From an uncultured cyanobacterium (GTDB lineage Bacteria > Cyanobacteriota > Cyanobacteriia > Cyanobacteriales > CAWCAG01), in the NCBI GenBank assembly GCA_963803805.1, contig CAWDOD010000004.1, positions 448,001-512,000 of the forward strand: a DNA stretch of 64,000 bases. The letters run 5' to 3'. A program made the translations under genes and the position numbers. This document shows positions 18,675-30,807 of the stretch, piece after piece. The notes under the pieces were generated by a model. It ran no database searches. It saw nothing but the letters and a program-made list of their open reading frames with translations, and was not told the origin of the DNA. Each line of letters opens with the position of its first letter. Positions within the stretch are counted from its first letter, which is position 1.

Positions 18675-19680
18675 ATGCAGTTCATAGATCGAGCAGAAAT
18701 AGAAGTAGAAGCTGGTAAAGGCGGCAATGGTATAGTCGCCTTTCGCCGGGAAAAATACGTCCCCGCAGGAGGTCCTGCAGGGGGTAATGGGGGGCGAGGT
18801 GGTTCAATTTTCTTCAAAGCAGTAGAAAATTTGCAAACTCTGTTGGACTTTAAATATGCTCGTCATTTTAAAGCAGATGATGGTAAGCGAGGAGGGCCAA
18901 ATAATCGTACCGGGGCATCAGGGGATGACTTAATTGTGGAAGTTCCTTGCGGTACAGTAATTTATGAGCTTGAGAGTGGAGAATTATTAGCAGATTTAGT
19001 TACCCCTCAACAAACCTTTTGCGCTGTCAAAGGAGGCAAAGGAGGCTTAGGAAATCAACATTTCTTAAGTAACAGCAATAGAGCGCCGGAATATGCCTTA
19101 CCTGGTTTGCCAGGGGAGATTAAAAGTCTGCGCTTAGAATTAAAACTACTAGCAGAAGTGGGCATAATTGGCTTACCTAATGCGGGTAAGTCTACCTTGA
19201 TTGCGGCCCTTTTCAGCAGCCCGTCCCAAAATAGCCGATTATCCCTTCACCACTTTAATACCTAACTTAGGTGTAGTTCGTAAACCGACTGGGGATGGTA
19301 CTGTATTTGCAGATATTCCTGGTTTAATTGAGGGCGCTCATACAGGAGTAGGATTGGGTCATGACTTTCTACGCCATATCGAACGTACTCGTCTTTTATT
19401 GCACCTAATTGATCTTACTGCAAGCGACCCCATTGCTGATTATCAAACTATTCAAGCAGAACTAAAAGCTTACGGCCACAGTTTAGCTGCTCGACAGCAA
19501 ATTATTGGTTTAAATAAGTTGGATGCAGTAGACAAAGAAACCTACACCCTAATTGCCGAAGAAGTTTCGCAATTAACGGCTGCACCCATTTTTGGTGTTT
19601 CTGCGGTGGCAGGAATTGGGCTTGATGCTTTGTTGCAAAAGATTTGGCAAACTTTAGATGATTTGCCGGATACTCAATAG
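18675..19680 (+). CDS. obgE: GTPase ObgE, split by a +1 T in the T4 run at 19210-19213 (probable sequencing error)
   Basis: MQFIDRA, Gly-rich Obg fold and GLPNAGKST in the first frame; [19 protein letters not shown] and NKLD in the second. Removing one T restores ALSAARPK. Confidence 0.93.
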
Positions 19681-24773: not shown

Positions 24774-25793
24774 TTAGTTTTCTCGAATAATTAGAGTATA
24801 CTTTCCCTTACTGCCGGACTCATAACTATTAACAATAATGCGATAGGTATCTTCTTTTGGTAAAGTAATCGTTAGCCGAGAATTTTTATTTTCGTTGCTA
24901 ATATCGTCATTTTCGCCGATTACCTGATTATCAGAATTAACTATAGCTAAATAAGCATCAAAGTCTTCGCTTTTTAAGGAAATAGTTATTGATTGGGCTG
25001 TAGTTCCTAGAAAAGGATAACTATCATATAAACTGCTATCTGAACTAAGAGCGTTATCTCCTTCTTCTAAAGCTCCTTCTTTTACCATTAAAGGTAGGGA
25101 ATCTTCATAGCTTTGGGCATAAGCGATCGCACAGAGATTGCCAAAAACAGAATGAACATCACAAGCAACTCCTGTGGCACTGTAGTTTGGTTCAAGGATA
25201 TTTTGTCGATGGATGCGGTTAGGAATACCATCATCAATAACCATCAACATAACAATATCCTGAGCGGAACTACCGCCGTAACTAATATTTTCTCCTCGCT
25301 TTCCTGTGACAATACCGTAGAGGGTAATCTTTTCCTCAAGTTTAATAGAATCCCTAGGTATCCCCTGATTCGTACTAATCCCTTCTTTTACCAAATCCTT
25401 TGCTGCCATAGACATACCGTCAAACGTTGTTAAAGGCGGCAGAGGTTGCCTTTGGCGTAGTACGGTAATTGCTTCATCTAAAGCACTAACCCCTTCTTTT
25501 GTTAAGACGATAGTACGACCAGGTATTCTTAATAAAGTATCGCTGTAATATTGTCTCATCTCCTCTAGCTGATCAGCATAAGCAGCCGGGTTTGTTCGTA
25601 CCTGGTTAATTTGGGCAATAATTTCTTGCTCCAAAACTGATTGTATGATGGGGCTGACTCGTGTAGGATTCGGTATTTCGCTTTGTGCTATCACCTCCCT
25701 ATCTTTTTCATTGGCGAAGGATGATGTAGCGTCGACTCCACCCCATAACAGGGAACTCACTAACAAGGTTGAAGATATTATTTTTAGCTGCAT
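24774..25793 (-). CDS. Secreted CAP (SCP) domain protein with C-terminal pre-peptidase (PPC) domain
   Basis: Signal peptide, INQVRTNP, GENISYG, IDDG...HRQNI; C-terminal FDAYL...ENDD...YRIIVNSY. Confidence 0.85.
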   Translation of the reverse strand: MQLKIISSTLLVSSLLWGGVDATSSFANEKDREVIAQSEIPNPTRVSPIIQSVLEQEIIAQINQVRTNPAAYADQLEEMRQYYSDTLLRIPGRTIVLTKEGVSALDEAITVLRQRQPLPPLTTFDGMSMAAKDLVKEGISTNQGIPRDSIKLEEKITLYGIVTGKRGENISYGGSSAQDIVMLMVIDDGIPNRIHRQNILEPNYSATGVACDVHSVFGNLCAIAYAQSYEDSLPLMVKEGALEEGDNALSSDSSLYDSYPFLGTTAQSITISLKSEDFDAYLAIVNSDNQVIGENDDISNENKNSRLTITLPKEDTYRIIVNSYESGSKGKYTLIIREN

Positions 25794-25890
25794 AGTTAAT
25801 TTTAGTGATCCTCAAGGTTAAGCCATTATAAAAGAAAATTCCCGAATCTTCCTAGTGAAAAGCAAATTATTTAGAAATGTATCAATGGCT

Positions 25891-25947
25891 TATTGCTATT
25901 AAATATCAATATGCTATCCTAAGCTTATTGTGAATAATTACTATCAA
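25891..25947 (+). promoter_or_regulatory. Putative sigma70 promoter overlapped by two Fur-box-like sites
   Basis: TATTGCTATT-A-AATATCAATA (25891-25911) and GAATAAT-T-ACTATCA (25932-25946) resemble TGATAAT-N-ATTATCA; TTGCTA-N16-TATCCT with an extended TG. Confidence 0.55.
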
Positions 25948-25957
25948 GAGGTGCATC

Positions 25958-26095
25958 ATGACAGTCAAATCCCAGCCAGTAAAACAGAGTAAGATTGAGA
26001 TTGAAGTCAAAAATCTTGCCCCGGAAACTAATACAGATACCACCGTTAAAGGTTATCAAAGTGGAGCCTTTGATGGGGATGATGGCTCTGATTAG
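25958..26095 (+). CDS. Unannotated 45-aa peptide, candidate RiPP precursor (MTVKSQPVKQSKIEIEVKNLAPETNTDTTVKGYQSGAFDGDDGSD)
   Basis: Translated by hand. RBS GAGGTG lies 4 nt before the ATG, a promoter lies upstream, a hairpin downstream, and the ORF is co-oriented with the JmjC oxygenase. Confidence 0.75.
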   Translation: MTVKSQPVKQSKIEIEVKNLAPETNTDTTVKGYQSGAFDGDDGSD

Positions 26096-26125
26096 TTAAG
26101 ATACTTTTTAAAATTGGTTTAGATT

Positions 26126-26236
26126 CATATAGCAATTATTAGTACCATGAGGTAAGCCTTAGACTCTATTTTTGCTAATAGCTAGTGGCGAATGGCTAAT
26201 AGAAATGTACCTCCGCAGCTTGGGAATTGCTATATG
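26126..26236. mobile_element. MITE-like repeat, family A (TATAGCAATT termini)
   Basis: 12-bp TIR CATATAGCAATT/AATTGCTATATG; internal ATGAGGTA...GCTAATG-like heptamers...GTACCTC; homologous to 41194-41303 and 63265-63350. Confidence 0.75.
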
Positions 26237-26246
26237 TCTTTTTTGG

Positions 26247-26275
26247 GGAAGTAAAATTGTTACAATTTTGCTTCC
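26247..26275 (+). terminator. Hairpin between the peptide gene and the oxygenase
   Basis: GGAAGTAAAATTGT-T-ACAATTTTGCTTCC, 14-bp arms with one G-U pair. Confidence 0.65.
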
Positions 26276-26350
26276 TTCCTTAGTTTAAGTAAAAGAGATA
26301 ACTTAATCTATTGCTGAAAAAGTATTTATAGCAATCATCCAAGAAATAAC

Positions 26351-27531
26351 ATGGAAAATCTCTCTATTAACTCTGTGATCGCAGAAATTTTATCTCCCTA
26401 CGAATTAGTCGAATTTTTTGAGAAGTATTGGACGCAAAAGAGCATTTTTATTCCTAATAATGGTCGTCGCTTCAACCAGATTTTCTCCTGGCAAAAACTC
26501 AACCATTTACTTAACTTTCATGAGTTCGATTACCCCTCTCTACGTTTAGCTAAAAATGGAGAAGTTTTACCTCCGAAAGAAAACGCTCATTTCCTGAAAC
26601 ATTGTCAAGAGGGAGCAACTTTAATCATTGATCGTTTACACAAACTGGTTCCTGAAGTAGGGCGTTTTGCCGCAGCAATCAAAGATGATTTAGGTCATCC
26701 TTTACAAGTAAATATGTATTGTTCTTGCCCCAAGTACAGGGATTCAAGTGTCATTATGATACCCACGAAGTATTTATTTTACAAGTAGATGGCTGTAAAC
26801 AATGGCATATTTTTGCTGATACAGTTAAGTACCCTTTAAAAGAAGAGAAATCATCTGCTCATTGCCCCCCCGAAAGTGAACCTTATTTAAGCTGTATCCT
26901 CGAACCTGGGGATGTTCTCTATATTCCGAGAGGACATTGGCATTATGCTAAGACAGTAGATCAACCATCTTTACACCTTACTTTAGGGGTACATTGTTTA
27001 ACGGGAATAGACTTTTTGCAGTGGTTAACAAAACAGCTAAAGGAAGAACAAGAATGGCGAACTAATTTACCGGTGATTAATAATAACTGTTCTGTTTCTC
27101 TCAACAAATACTTAGATAGTTTAACAGGGAGTTTAGCTAATTATTTACACACTAACAACTCTAGTGCTGAATATGCACAATATATAGCCAATTCAGAAAA
27201 TCTCATTCCTAAGTATGCCTTTCCCTATCAAGCGGGCTACCAAATTTTTGCCCAAGGTATCAACACAAAGTTTATGCGTCCAAAGTACCAGCGATCGCAG
27301 ATTATAGAATTACCAGGACAGCAAGGTTATAAAATTATAGTTTGGCACAAAGAAATCATCTTAAAAGGTGTCCCCAAATCTTTTGTTAATAAGTTATTTC
27401 ATCAAGAAACTTTTACTGGTATAGATGTAGCCAGTTGGTTGTCAGAGGATTTTGATTGGGAAGTAGATATTGCCCCGACTCTACGGCGTTTAGTTACAGA
27501 AGGAATTATTTTTGTTGTCAATGATGCCTAG
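26351..27531 (+). CDS. JmjC/cupin-4 Fe(II)/2-oxoglutarate oxygenase, split by a -1 frameshift in the C4 run at 26728-26731
   Basis: FFEKYW and GATLII in the first frame; HYDTHEVFILQVDGCKQW and LEPGDVLYIPRGHWH (HxD...H triad), SLHLTLG in the second. Adding one C gives NMYCSCPQVQGFKCHYD. Confidence 0.88.
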
Positions 27532-27629
27532 TAAGCTGGCAGGTATTTATATTGTCGATGGGGGGAGGTAATGGGTAATAGGTAATGGGTAAGAATTACA
27601 GCTTATCATCTTAGTTAATTCAACAATAT
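27532..27629. repeat. Degenerate MITE-like repeat, family B
   Basis: Starts TAAGCTG, contains GGTAATG heptamers, shares AGCTTAT...TTAGTTAA.TCAACAATAT with 54610-54722. Confidence 0.55.
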
Positions 27630-27863
27630 AAGGCTTTGTGATCGCACAATTTTTTTGCCTACAAGTAACATAAAATACGGCAAGCCGAACATTGCTCAGT
27701 TATCAATAAATATACTTAAAAAATAAAATCCATAATCTCTCTGAAGTTAATTGCTAAATTCTTGCATTAAGATGAAAGTCAAGATTTACTCAAATTCCTT
27801 ATTAAACCTAGGAGGAGTGAGAAATCATCTTTTAGTAACAAAAAATTAAATCCCATCTAATTT

Positions 27864-28871
27864 ATGACTCCTTTCTTCTGTGCCAACCTGTCTCGTCAGC
27901 TAGGGGAAGACATCATTGGTAGCGCTCCCTCTTACCAAACCTACATCATGGTAGAATGCCCTTATCCTTGGGCAGAAAATGCCTTTAAATCTCAAGGCGT
28001 TCCCCAAAACTTAAGGGAGTTGGTAGCAGAAGTTAAGGAAGCCAACTTATCTATTCGCTTTCTTTTAACCTTACCCCCGCAACCAGATCCAGAAAATCAG
28101 ACGCGGGTATTAATTTTCCAGAAACAGTCAGGGCTAGCTGTCGGTTATAAGAAACAAGCAATTAAGGTAAGCAATATCACAGATGTTGCACCACTATTAA
28201 ATAAATACTTAACATCAGAAGGTTTGCAAATTGAAGGTAAAGCCAGTAGAATCAGAGATTTCTTTGTTTGCACCCATGGAAGCCATGATAAATGTTGTTC
28301 TCGCTACGGTTATCCCTTCTTTCGCCAAGGTGTAGCTATGGTTGAGAAGCTAGGTTTAGAGGATGTAGGTTTTTGGCAAGTAAGTCATATTGGGGGACAT
28401 AGGTTTGCCCCAACCTTAATTAGCCTACCTGATGGCAGGTATTATGGGGCTTTAGACCAGGAATCTTTACAAGCAATCCTCTTACATCAAGGGGATATCA
28501 CTTGCTTAAACAGAGTTTATCGCGGTTGGGGGCTTTTACCCAGAAAAGTCCAAGTTTTAGAAAGAGAATTAATCTTACGCCACGGTTGGGAATGGTTATC
28601 TAATTCTGTTAGTTGTCGTATTCTTCAAGATTTTCCTGAAAAGAATTTAACCCAAGTAGAGTTATTTTGCCAAACCAGCAACGGAGAGACTTGTGCTTAC
28701 CAAGGAGATATTATCATAGATGAAAGTAAAACTCTGACTATGCCAGGTTCTTGTCATGCAGACAAGGCATCAACCTTTGTTAAGTATACTGCTACAAATA
28801 TTCGTCAAGTAACTAAAGTACAATCTCTAGATCATAAGCGTTCTGTATCTAGAGTCGAAAAATCAGCTTAG
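27864..28871 (+). CDS. Sucrase/ferredoxin-like (Apd1/Aim32-type) thioredoxin-fold [2Fe-2S] protein
   Basis: VCTHGSHDKCC and SHIGGHRFAP Cys/His ligand motifs; VECPYPW; YRGW. Confidence 0.9.
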   Translation: MTPFFCANLSRQLGEDIIGSAPSYQTYIMVECPYPWAENAFKSQGVPQNLRELVAEVKEANLSIRFLLTLPPQPDPENQTRVLIFQKQSGLAVGYKKQAIKVSNITDVAPLLNKYLTSEGLQIEGKASRIRDFFVCTHGSHDKCCSRYGYPFFRQGVAMVEKLGLEDVGFWQVSHIGGHRFAPTLISLPDGRYYGALDQESLQAILLHQGDITCLNRVYRGWGLLPRKVQVLERELILRHGWEWLSNSVSCRILQDFPEKNLTQVELFCQTSNGETCAYQGDIIIDESKTLTMPGSCHADKASTFVKYTATNIRQVTKVQSLDHKRSVSRVEKSA

Positions 28872-28899: not shown

Positions 28900-30807
28900 A
28901 TGGTGGTATTGAAAAAATGGCAATGGCTCTTACTAATTAGTCCTATTGCTGGATTAGTTACCTTCTTGCTAATCTCCGCAGGGTGGCAAATTCATCAATG
29001 GGGTATTAATTGGATATGGGGGCTATTTATCCTCATCTTAGCTGGGTGGCGTTGGTTATTGGTAAAATGGACTCGCCCTGGTATTGGGGAAATCGAGACT
29101 GCTGTAGCCGAAGCAGAAGCAGAATTAGCCACTGTCCAAGCAGAAACAGCCAACCTTTTAGCCTCAAATGATCTGATTACCAAAACGGTAGAAACGGCCT
29201 TACAAAGCACCTTAGAAACCGCTAGAAATGACCTTCCTATTTGGGAAGATTGGACTGCATTTTGGCAACGTTGTCAAGAATTAATTGTTGCTGTTGCCCA
29301 TGCCTACCATCCGGAAGTTAAATATCCTCTACTCAACATCTATATTCCCCAAGCTTACGGCTTAATGCGAGGAACTGTAGATGATATGGATCGTTGGATG
29401 GAACAACTATCTCCAGCCTTAAATAAAGTTACTGTCGGACAAGGCTTTGAAGCCTATGAAGTTTATCGTAAACTAGAACCATCAGCACGCAAACTCCTGC
29501 GCGTCTGGAATTTTGCTCAATGGTTCCTAAATCCCGCCGCCGCTTTAGCGAAACAAGCTAGTCAGGGTTATAATAACCGTGCAACGGAACAACTTTTAGG
29601 GAATTTGGGGCAGATGCTGCGAGAAGTCGCCCTACGGAATCTCTGTAAACAAGCTGTAGCCCTTTATGGTAGTGACTCCTTACCAGAATCAACCTTTAAC
29701 CTTTCTACCCCTAGTTTACCCAAAGCCCAAAGCCAAACTCTCCAAGAAATTTTAGCAACCGCAGAACCGACTGAAGTTGTAGAGCAAAAACCTGTTAATA
29801 TTCTGTTGGTAGGTAGAACTGGTTCAGGTAAAAGCAGTCTGATCAATACCCTCTTTCAAGCTGAAAAAGCCGAAGTAGATGTTCTTCCCAGCACCGATAG
29901 ATTGCAAAGTTACCATTGGCAGGTTCCTAATGGAGAAAGCCTCACCCTTTGGGATACTCCAGGATACGAACAGGCAAATCGTACTGAGTTAAGGGAGTTA
30001 GTACTAGATTATGCCATTAATGCCGACCTTCTGCTACTCGTTACTCCCGCCCTTGATCCTGCCTTACAAATGGATGCAGACTTCCTAGAAGAAGTTGCAA
30101 CAGTAGTAACAGAACTTCCTACCATTACCGTAGTGACTCAAGTAGATAGGTTGCGCCCCATTCGTGAATGGCAACCTCCTTATAACTGGCGAGATGGTAA
30201 CAGTGCCAAGGAGACATCGATCCGAGAGGCAACAAAGTATCGCGCCGAACTTTTAGGGCAGTTTTGCAACCTCATTCTTCCTACCGTTACCAGAGATGCC
30301 AAAACAAACCGCAATCCTTGGAATATCGAAGAATTATCTCTAGCTTTAGTAGAAGCGATCGCCCCGGCTAAACAACTACGTTTAGCCCGTTTCCTGCGCG
30401 ATCGCGAAGCCCGCAGTCTTGCTGCAGCGAAAATAATCGATCGTTACACATTACAAATGGCTACAACCCAAGGGCTAACTGCCTTGCTGAAAAGCCCTGT
30501 CTTGCAATTCATCTCTACCATGTCTACGGGATCACCCACCTTAGCCTATGCACTCTCCCAAAAAATTCCTGTAGAACAGTTACCCGTAGTTATTGGTAAA
30601 CTGCAAATGGGGTACGAACTTCATTCGCTTTTAGAGCCAGATAAATCCTTCGACTTACTTTCTCTTTGGAATTTGTTATTAGAGAACTCTCAAACCCCGG
30701 ATCGCAATGCTTGGGCTTTCGGTCATAGCTTGGTAGAATACTGGACACAAAATCTGACAAAAGAGCAATTGTCAGAAAGATTTGCTTATTATTTACAACG
30801 AACTTAA
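28900..30807 (+). CDS. Membrane-anchored P-loop GTPase family protein
   Basis: Two N-terminal TM helices; G1 GRTGSGKSS, G3 DTPG, G4-like TQVD. Confidence 0.8.
   Translation: MVVLKKWQWLLLISPIAGLVTFLLISAGWQIHQWGINWIWGLFILILAGWRWLLVKWTRPGIGEIETAVAEAEAELATVQAETANLLASNDLITKTVETALQSTLETARNDLPIWEDWTAFWQRCQELIVAVAHAYHPEVKYPLLNIYIPQAYGLMRGTVDDMDRWMEQLSPALNKVTVGQGFEAYEVYRKLEPSARKLLRVWNFAQWFLNPAAALAKQASQGYNNRATEQLLGNLGQMLREVALRNLCKQAVALYGSDSLPESTFNLSTPSLPKAQSQTLQEILATAEPTEVVEQKPVNILLVGRTGSGKSSLINTLFQAEKAEVDVLPSTDRLQSYHWQVPNGESLTLWDTPGYEQANRTELRELVLDYAINADLLLLVTPALDPALQMDADFLEEVATVVTELPTITVVTQVDRLRPIREWQPPYNWRDGNSAKETSIREATKYRAELLGQFCNLILPTVTRDAKTNRNPWNIEELSLALVEAIAPAKQLRLARFLRDREARSLAAAKIIDRYTLQMATTQGLTALLKSPVLQFISTMSTGSPTLAYALSQKIPVEQLPVVIGKLQMGYELHSLLEPDKSFDLLSLWNLLLENSQTPDRNAWAFGHSLVEYWTQNLTKEQLSERFAYYLQRT

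Follow-up and report, generated by a model that had tools for sequence, protein, structure and literature searches.

MppG of Moorena producens is described as a peptide hydroxylase that uses Fe(II) and 2-oxoglutarate (2OG) and depends on a Nif11-type leader; its recognition element for peptides that are made on ribosomes and then modified after translation (RiPPs), the RRE domain, binds the leader strand (bioRxiv 10.64898/2026.10.04.756588). Here we report a comparable arrangement in 64,000 nucleotides of an uncultured cyanobacterium (contig CAWDOD010000004.1, positions 448,001 to 512,000 of the forward strand; this whole stretch is called the window). Three of its genes, encoding a small acidic peptide, a JmjC-type oxygenase and a [2Fe-2S] ferredoxin-like protein, on balance probably form a cassette for a RiPP-like modified peptide that is conserved in filamentous cyanobacteria. 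MppG and the window enzyme are compared here by description. MppG is likewise a cyanobacterial enzyme that hydroxylates a RiPP and has an iron site of the His/Asp/His type; a strand of the leader is reported to join the beta-sheet of the leader-binding domain at its C-terminus. It is said to hydroxylate the C-beta of a Trp within a lanthionine ring, as part of a large gene cluster, whereas the window oxygenase is the only obvious modifying enzyme at its locus and is accompanied by a [2Fe-2S] partner. The window peptide also differs in having no Nif11 domain, but rather a short leader of the type SKIxIEVKEI and an acidic core.

Other described systems resemble individual parts of the cassette. 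CzlI (curacozole, PMC11575548) and BipG (biphenomycin, PMC12707348) are reported to be RiPP hydroxylases of the JmjC subfamily of Fe(II)/2OG enzymes that depend on flanking or leader sequences. They differ in belonging to actinobacterial clusters with many other enzymes and in targeting Phe and Orn, and they are reported without a ferredoxin partner. Aspartate of a ribosomal peptide is the reported target of the Fe(II)/2OG enzyme SmaO, which hydroxylates it at the beta position before SmaX converts the hydroxy-Asp to aminomalonate (PMC12186529). This pair provides a model for an oxygenase and a partner acting in two steps, although SmaX is described as an HD-domain iron enzyme and not a thioredoxin-like ferredoxin, and the cluster as graspetide-type with a GG leader and an exporter. 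In family and fold, the window oxygenase resembles NO66 (PDB 4ccn), MINA53 (4bxf) and YcfD/RoxA (4ccl), with which it shares Pfam family PF08007, the HxD...H motif, the 2OG lysine and a succession of JmjC, helical and winged-helix domains. Those enzymes hydroxylate His or Arg in ribosomal proteins and have no linked small substrate gene, whereas the window family is sparse and linked to a peptide. The third gene recalls the bis-histidinyl [2Fe-2S] ferredoxins Apd1 and Aim32 (PF06999, CX8C...HX3H; PMC8482512). These are described as proteins of eukaryotes that take part in redox quality control, whereas the window protein carries additional N- and C-terminal domains and is encoded beside an oxygenase and its putative substrate. 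A literature search found no earlier description of the cassette; subscription journals lay outside its coverage, and the supplementary tables of an RRE survey (PMC12710340) may list such loci.

The three genes occupy the plus strand between a CAP/PPC-domain gene and a large GTPase gene:

25958–26095, plus strand: precursor-like peptide gene, 45 amino acids, with leader SKIEIEVKNL, a linker and the C-terminal core FDGDDGSD
26351–27531, plus strand: JmjC_2 (PF08007) Fe(II)/2OG oxygenase gene with ROX architecture; 1-nt gap in the assembly at 26726/26727
27864–28871, plus strand: Suc_Fer-like (PF06999) gene, with a thioredoxin-like [2Fe-2S] ferredoxin domain, the motif CX8C...HX3H and a C-terminal beta domain

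An earlier reading made from the sequence only had named a 45-residue peptide, a hairpin, a JmjC gene and a sucrase-ferredoxin gene, all on one strand, with no protease or exporter adjoining. All four are present on the plus strand, and neither a protease nor an exporter was found near the genes in the window. The identity given to the third gene was confirmed by its PF06999 match and its CX8C...HX3H motif. The description of the JmjC gene stands with a qualification: the HxD...H triad is intact, and the reading frame is split in the assembly.

A central finding is the pairing of peptide and oxygenase. A homolog scan using one genome per species returned 331 oxygenase relatives, of which the best 80 were kept as loci; titles that name a taxon are cyanobacterial, and a few read only 'uncultured bacterium'. 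A hidden Markov model (HMM) was built from 33 family peptides and applied to 88 loci, the window included. It found exactly one match in 79 of them, with one single match in the 64-kb window, and all 79 lay on the oxygenase strand at a distance of 92–1519 nt upstream (median 163). Since the 33 training sequences belong to these 79, 46 of the matches are independent of the model. Whole genomes gave the same picture: strong peptide matches were present in 5 of 41 related genomes, all at JmjC loci, and an even sample of the phylum contained the peptide in 7 of 301 genomes, with the oxygenase gene directly downstream in all seven. At seven loci taken from related genomes, a small open reading frame (ORF) on the same strand preceded every JmjC homolog. 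The proposed pairing of an acidic-tailed peptide with the oxygenase withstood these surveys; homologs of the JmjC gene do carry a conserved upstream peptide (79/88 loci), and the whole-genome matches fall only beside a JmjC gene. At the level of genome comparison, a RiPP-like peptide–oxygenase pairing is well supported.

The peptide ORF has the properties of a gene. Compared with its counterpart in the congener G001, it shows 84% protein identity and 23 nucleotide differences, 18 of them at third codon positions (16.0 synonymous and 7.0 non-synonymous; dN/dS 0.067). Logan contigs were obtained from the only public run containing the window DNA (share of words 0.91); no RNA run was listed for it. 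A second, lower-depth contig of this run, apparently from a strain that occurs alongside, departs from the window sequence at 26041, 26065 and 26068; read from the frame, all three changes are synonymous third positions of the peptide ORF. The low dN/dS, the third-position bias and the synonymous-only variant contig argue that the ORF is translated, and the substitution pattern indicates strong purifying selection.

Aligning the family revealed a bipartite organization. Behind an N-terminus that varies stands the near-invariant motif S-K-I-x-[IV]-E-[IV]-K-[ED]-[IL], in which residues alternate in a way that would suit a beta-strand. The linker, also variable and roughly 15 residues long, then leads to the core, D-x(1,2)-D-G-x-D, in which only the columns D39, D42, G43 and D45 (G001 numbering) are near-invariant. 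Peptides of the window's subtype end exactly with ...GAFDGDDGSD, and those of the commoner subtype read ...LN(T/V)DADG(S/G)D followed by L/V-x-N-E. The core occurs in one to three tandem copies, with repeats for example in loci L037, L047, L080 and L081; in several genomes they take forms such as LNTDADGSD twice or NFDADGGDR three times. Conservation at both ends, a variable linker and a repeatable core together give the layout of a RiPP precursor, and a leader with a separate conserved core lies beside a modifying enzyme in 79 of the 88 loci. A conserved core made only of Asp and Gly fits Asp as the target of modification.

Searching a collection of 5.8 billion proteins with a profile of the peptide family yielded 153 relatives, none of which has a Pfam domain and all of which, where named, are called 'hypothetical protein'. 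The titles of the sequence records place the family in Moorena, Microcoleus, Scytonema, Okeania, Trichodesmium and Symploca, which are natural-product-rich genera. The window peptide itself matched no family in Pfam or NCBIfam, neither of which revealed a Nif11-like leader, and it gave no usable match in the ESM Atlas. The most divergent oxygenase homologs (L018, L019 and L020, from genomes G037, G007 and G029) are preceded by longer ORFs with signal-peptide-like N-termini and a leader-like I/V-x-V-x-V-x-E strand; their cores differ, being DYDRDRGRG, five DYSRNY repeats, or a long Asp/Glu-rich tail.

The oxygenase retains the residues expected of its family. The C-terminal piece of the window protein scored 88.3 bits against PF08007 and the intact G001 protein 96.5 bits (cut-off 22), while no NCBIfam family was matched. 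The iron triad H135, D137 and H198, found in the window within HYD and GHWHY, is invariant in 54 homologs. K150 of the motif GxKxW is also invariant in the 54 sequences and aligns with the GRKLW lysine of NO66; we take this lysine to be the 2OG-binding residue. In a sequence profile search, the nearest solved proteins were NO66 (E 1.7e-28), MINA53 (E 1e-26) and B. subtilis YxbC (E 2.5e-22), with only a weak match to E. coli YcfD (E 4e-6). The AlphaFold 2 (AF2) model of the oxygenase (predicted local distance difference test, pLDDT, 87.2) combines a JmjC barrel with a helical domain, and in its C-terminal domain four strands precede the helices (beta-beta-beta-beta-alpha-beta-alpha-alpha). A Foldseek search with the whole model recovered NO66 (E 6e-24, TMq 0.60, 447 columns) and YcfD (E 2e-19). 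As judged from the model, the oxygenase belongs to the ribosomal-oxygenase fold family, with the three-domain build of NO66, MINA53 and YcfD. Whether it clusters with RoxA/YcfD, which had been raised as a point that would count against the proposed system, receives a divided answer: Pfam family and fold are shared, and the sequence is far from that of E. coli YcfD. A ribosome-modifying role does not fit the sparse distribution and fixed partner gene of the window family.

Distant JmjC_2 paralogs of the window enzyme, found in genomes G012 and G027, stand beside Nif11-type precursors that end in GG and were recognised by eye (L009 2554–2739, L010 2653–2901 and L012 616–882; three JmjC_2 paralogs lie within 18 kb in G027). 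This layout looks like the MppG arrangement and adds a further likeness to that system.

The C-terminal domain of the oxygenase is a candidate for leader binding. A survey of RREs reports PF08007 proteins fused to RRE-like folds and describes bacterial homologs 'in RiPP-like genomic contexts' (PMC12710340). One complex prediction was made, combining the G001 enzyme, Fe and the G001 peptide, with both proteins given as alignments. It reached a score of 0.59 (runs 0.58, 0.59 and 0.64) compared with 0.03 for the best control; the partner pLDDT was 53–56, contact agreement was at least 58%, and the verdict of the tool was 'weak support'. When this tool was calibrated, 116 of 157 solved pairs attained the mark, as did 2 of 215 mismatches, and scores of 0.60 or less comprised only 18 solved pairs together with both mismatches. 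In the loci from Okeania, the final ~90 oxygenase codons, which encode the winged-helix, RRE-like domain, are present in one to four additional tandem copies between the oxygenase and ferredoxin genes (L095 5140–6405, L098 5174–5443, L099 4929–5201). Some of these copies are open frames with their own Met, and the precursors there carry three core repeats.

The inclusion of the sucrase-ferredoxin in the unit was upheld, as 69 of the 80 loci have a Suc_Fer-like gene directly downstream of the oxygenase gene and on its strand. The window protein matched PF06999 with 97.5 bits (cut-off 34.9). C136, C145, H175 and H179 are invariant in 36 sequences and form the pattern CX8C...HX3H, which is reported to be the ligand motif of Aim32 (PMC8482512); C6 and C297 are also invariant in this set. 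The AF2 model (pLDDT 83.1) shows extra thioredoxin-like and beta domains flanking the ferredoxin domain. With Foldseek, one domain resembled 1f37, a thioredoxin-like [2Fe-2S] ferredoxin of Aquifex (probability 1.00, TMt 0.59, root-mean-square deviation 2.9 over 86 columns), with an E-value of only 0.036. Foldseek returned nothing at E ≤ 0.001, and comparison with the sequences of the Protein Data Bank (PDB) gave no match at E up to 0.1.

The best reading of these sequences is that the cassette would be a RiPP-type system for peptide hydroxylation. Its basis would be a JmjC enzyme of the ribosomal-oxygenase type, joined by a precursor family for which we found no description and by a [2Fe-2S] partner that is unusual. 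The 45-residue product would serve as the precursor, its N-terminal half providing a beta-strand-type recognition motif and its C-terminal part an acidic core. The winged-helix, RRE-like domain at the C-terminus of the oxygenase would bind the leader, and the enzyme would hydroxylate a residue of the core, most probably Asp at C-beta. The bis-His [2Fe-2S] ferredoxin could act with the oxygenase in either of two ways, as a redox partner that keeps the oxygenase iron as Fe(II) or returns it to that state, or by oxidising the hydroxylated residue further in a second step. Fe(II)/2OG oxygenases complete productive turnover without an external reductant. The stem-loop following the peptide gene may cause more peptide than enzyme transcript to be made.

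If the oxygenase does modify the peptide, the cassette, with a single peptide and one or two proteins, would be compact and easy to reconstitute. JmjC enzymes of the ribosomal-oxygenase type would then be seen to act on dedicated peptides as well as on ribosomal proteins, and sucrase/ferredoxin-like [2Fe-2S] proteins would gain a first bacterial function. A bolder proposal, which we put forward tentatively and consider possible rather than probable, is that the cassette represents a new class of RiPP or modified small proteins, with the JmjC enzyme as the defining enzyme and a dedicated ferredoxin. Conversion of Asp in the one to three tandem cores to beta-hydroxy-Asp, or to a further oxidised residue, would then give an intracellular or cell-associated peptide that binds a hard cation, be it Ca, Fe or another. 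The state of such a peptide would report on O2, 2OG and Fe(II) alike, since the oxygenase uses up all three.

Several observations weigh against a peptide-hydroxylation system. Nine of the 88 loci have no peptide match: L025, L079 and L086 hold less than 800 nt of upstream DNA, L018–L020 are distant homologs with divergent upstream ORFs, and L078, L083 and L096 fall into neither group. The Suc_Fer-like gene is not beside the JmjC gene in 11 of the 80 loci, and genes of this kind are present in relatives lacking a JmjC homolog (for example G008, G014, G019 and G038); given its presence in relatives without the oxygenase, the PF06999 family is wider than the cassette. Neither a leader protease nor an exporter is conserved in the 80 loci, and no C39/ABC exporter was found near the genes in the window, so release of the product as a small natural product may not take place at all. 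The oxygenase is the sole PF08007 match in its own genome, which leaves room for a ribosomal-protein substrate. A Pfam search with its C-terminal 92 residues gave nothing at E up to 5, not even PqqD/RRE, and the domain would be RRE-like only by the order of secondary-structure elements in the model. The complex score is a weak pass that comes without contacts, and the window's own oxygenase gene is broken as assembled.

Two alternatives accept the genes as a unit or an active enzyme and give them another purpose. The sequence-only reading had proposed a ribosomal metallophore induced by iron starvation, in which Fur represses the genes, beta-hydroxy-Asp chelates Fe(III) and the ferredoxin reduces or releases the iron; we now regard this as quite unlikely. 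Beta-hydroxy-Asp is a Fe(III) ligand in siderophores, a core of Asp and Gly only would be a plausible ligand set for a hard metal once hydroxylated, the partner is an iron-sulfur protein, and ribosomal peptide metallophores, the bufferins, are reported to exist. However, the 'Fur-like promoter' did not survive comparison with chance. Using the Anabaena FurA consensus (as given in PMC4005646) and an E. coli Fur box, the best match was 13/19 in both cases. For FurA, 693 of 2000 shuffles did as well, as did 58 of 390 window tiles; for the E. coli box, 278 of 2000 shuffles did. The G001 promoter reached 12/19. With the Fur box at chance level, the claim of iron regulation is left unsupported, and the main-clade upstream motif TTCTCAACTAnTTGC is unlike the AT-rich FurA consensus. 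The expected co-occurrence with a TonB receptor, a C39/ABC exporter or a protease was likewise not seen: across the 80 loci no recurring gene was one of these or a siderophore-type transporter, none of the three was found close to the cassette in the window, and the FecCD and ExbD genes of the window are 13–15 kb from the cassette. Beyond the chemistry of Asp, the metallophore reading has no support. It is somewhat less improbable, although still unlikely, that the oxygenase is a ribosomal-protein hydroxylase of the YcfD/NO66 kind and the acidic protein an accessory, a regulator or a substrate mimic. The Pfam family and three-domain fold of NO66, MINA53 and YcfD would suit such an enzyme, as would its position as the only PF08007 gene of the genome and the presence of a gene for ribosome hibernation factor (HPF) 1.2 kb upstream in the window. 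Its distribution speaks against that role: a close oxygenase homolog is found in only 8 of 41 related genomes, and the peptide, with 7 carriers among 301 genomes sampled across the phylum, is too thinly spread for a core modification of the ribosome. The enzyme is moreover linked to the peptide in 79 of 88 loci and in the whole-genome scans, HPF is a neighbour in none of the 80 loci, E. coli YcfD is only weakly similar in sequence (E 4e-6), and paralogs adjoin Nif11-type precursors.

The remaining alternatives deny a function to one of the genes. A small ORF upstream of the oxygenase on the same strand, with a hairpin between the two, could be a regulatory leader (uORF) that controls the enzyme by attenuation while its product has no function. 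This is very improbable: both ends of the peptide are conserved at the amino-acid level across many genera (dN/dS 0.067), the core is repeated in tandem, the ORF has its own ribosome-binding site, spacers reach 1519 nt, and a T run follows few of the hairpins. The other possibility is that the frameshift is real, the oxygenase a pseudogene and the cassette dead in this genome, which we likewise judge unlikely. As assembled, the JmjC gene is split into overlapping frames, 26351–26788 and 26719–27531, by a base missing from a Trp codon: G001 reads TGG CCC CAA (Cys-Ser-Trp-Pro-Gln) where the window has TGCCCCAA, that is, TGGCCCC compared with TGCCCC in the assembly. The in-frame stop in the oxygenase homolog of L077 shows that broken copies may exist, although each of the 80 homologs retrieved gives a single long alignment with the intact protein. 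In the Logan data, one contig carries an extra G behind 26726 (depth 6.31 of 6.31), which restores the conserved Trp codon TGG and the reading frame; the run is possibly the sample from which the genome originates, making this a second assembly and not a second sample. The obg GTPase gene, which is essential, is also split in the window (GTP1_OBG 18675–19262, MMR_HSR1 19201–19677), and the peptide and ferredoxin genes are intact. The split obg gene, the extra G and the intact homologs make an assembly indel likelier than a real frameshift, and the JmjC frameshift is probably an assembly error. The same run also differs from the window by 1 nt at 27560.

The following further features surround or separate the three genes:

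24774–25793, minus strand: secreted CAP/PPC-domain gene, the upstream flank of the cassette
25862–25920, plus strand: conserved upstream block, a putative sigma-70-type promoter
25946–25951, plus strand: ribosome-binding site AAGAGG, 6 nt before the ATG
26123–26240: dispersed miniature repeat of ~110 nt, inserted in the spacer between the peptide and JmjC genes
26245–26277, plus strand: attenuator- or terminator-like stem-loop, after the peptide gene and ahead of the enzyme gene
27568–27671: second repeated stretch, in the spacer between the JmjC and Suc_Fer-like genes, with a depth peak of 21.9 compared with about 6.5
28900–30807: large GTPase gene, the downstream flank of the cassette

When the ORFs of the 80 loci were clustered, the oxygenase was present in 80, the ferredoxin in 68 and a convergent GNAT acetyltransferase in 61; the next cluster reached 20. 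The GNAT gene follows the ferredoxin gene directly on the minus strand (loci L024–L100). Both genes are present in 55 of the 63 loci of the subtype with residues after the core. Among loci of the window's subtype, GNAT occurs in only 2 of 10, and in none of the seven that keep the ferredoxin gene. It was rejected as a component of the window's cassette; no GNAT gene adjoins the genes there, and the best match in the same genome is a distant GNAT with 29% identity. TldD/PmbA-like genes occur in 14 of the 80 loci. The GTPase, CAP/PPC protein, HPF, LipB, YCII and SBP genes that neighbour the cassette in the window are each found in 0 of the 80, and these neighbours are outside the unit. In G001, ~0.9 kb of extra DNA separates the CAP-domain and peptide genes (L014 4855–5800) and has no counterpart in the window.

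The upstream block at 25862–25920 is nearly identical in G001, and the sequence further upstream differs. It contains a -35-like TTGCTA (25893–25898), an extended -10 TGC (25912–25914) and a -10-like TATCCT (25915–25920), and by eye the arrangement TTG(C/A).A ... TGnTA...T is also seen in the window-type loci L014, L015, L036, L097 and L023. A consensus promoter scan did not flag the block, as only 8 of 12 positions match; its sequence looks like a sigma-70-type promoter with an extended -10. NtcA and SufR-type sites were rejected by eye, as the spacing did not agree with those motifs. At the ribosome-binding site, the sequence TATCAAGAGGTGCATCATG is identical in G000 and G001, and other loci have GGAG-type sites before the start codon. 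Most loci of the main clade carry the motif TTCTCAACTAnTTGC ~105–135 nt before the peptide start codon, with an information content of 11.8 bits compared with at most 7.8 in 20 shuffled controls; the window has a poor match (score 5.9). The motif is partly palindromic (CAACTAGTTG) and lies just upstream of a -35-like TTGAC, as in L016, L026, L029, L038, L059, L063, L076 and others.

At gathering thresholds, Rfam gave 0 matches in the whole window. The hairpin at 26245–26277 has 15 pairs and a T-rich tail (-14.7 kcal/mol), and G001 contains a homologous GGAAGC...GCTTCC stem. Spacer hairpins with z ≤ -2.2 were found in 48 of the 52 loci surveyed (30 mononucleotide shuffles per locus), few of which then run into a T run. 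The repeat at 26123–26240 has 27 further matches in its own genome, is absent from the G001 spacer, and coincides with a depth peak and loose contig ends in the Logan data. Contig depth is also raised at 27568–27671 and 28504–28607.

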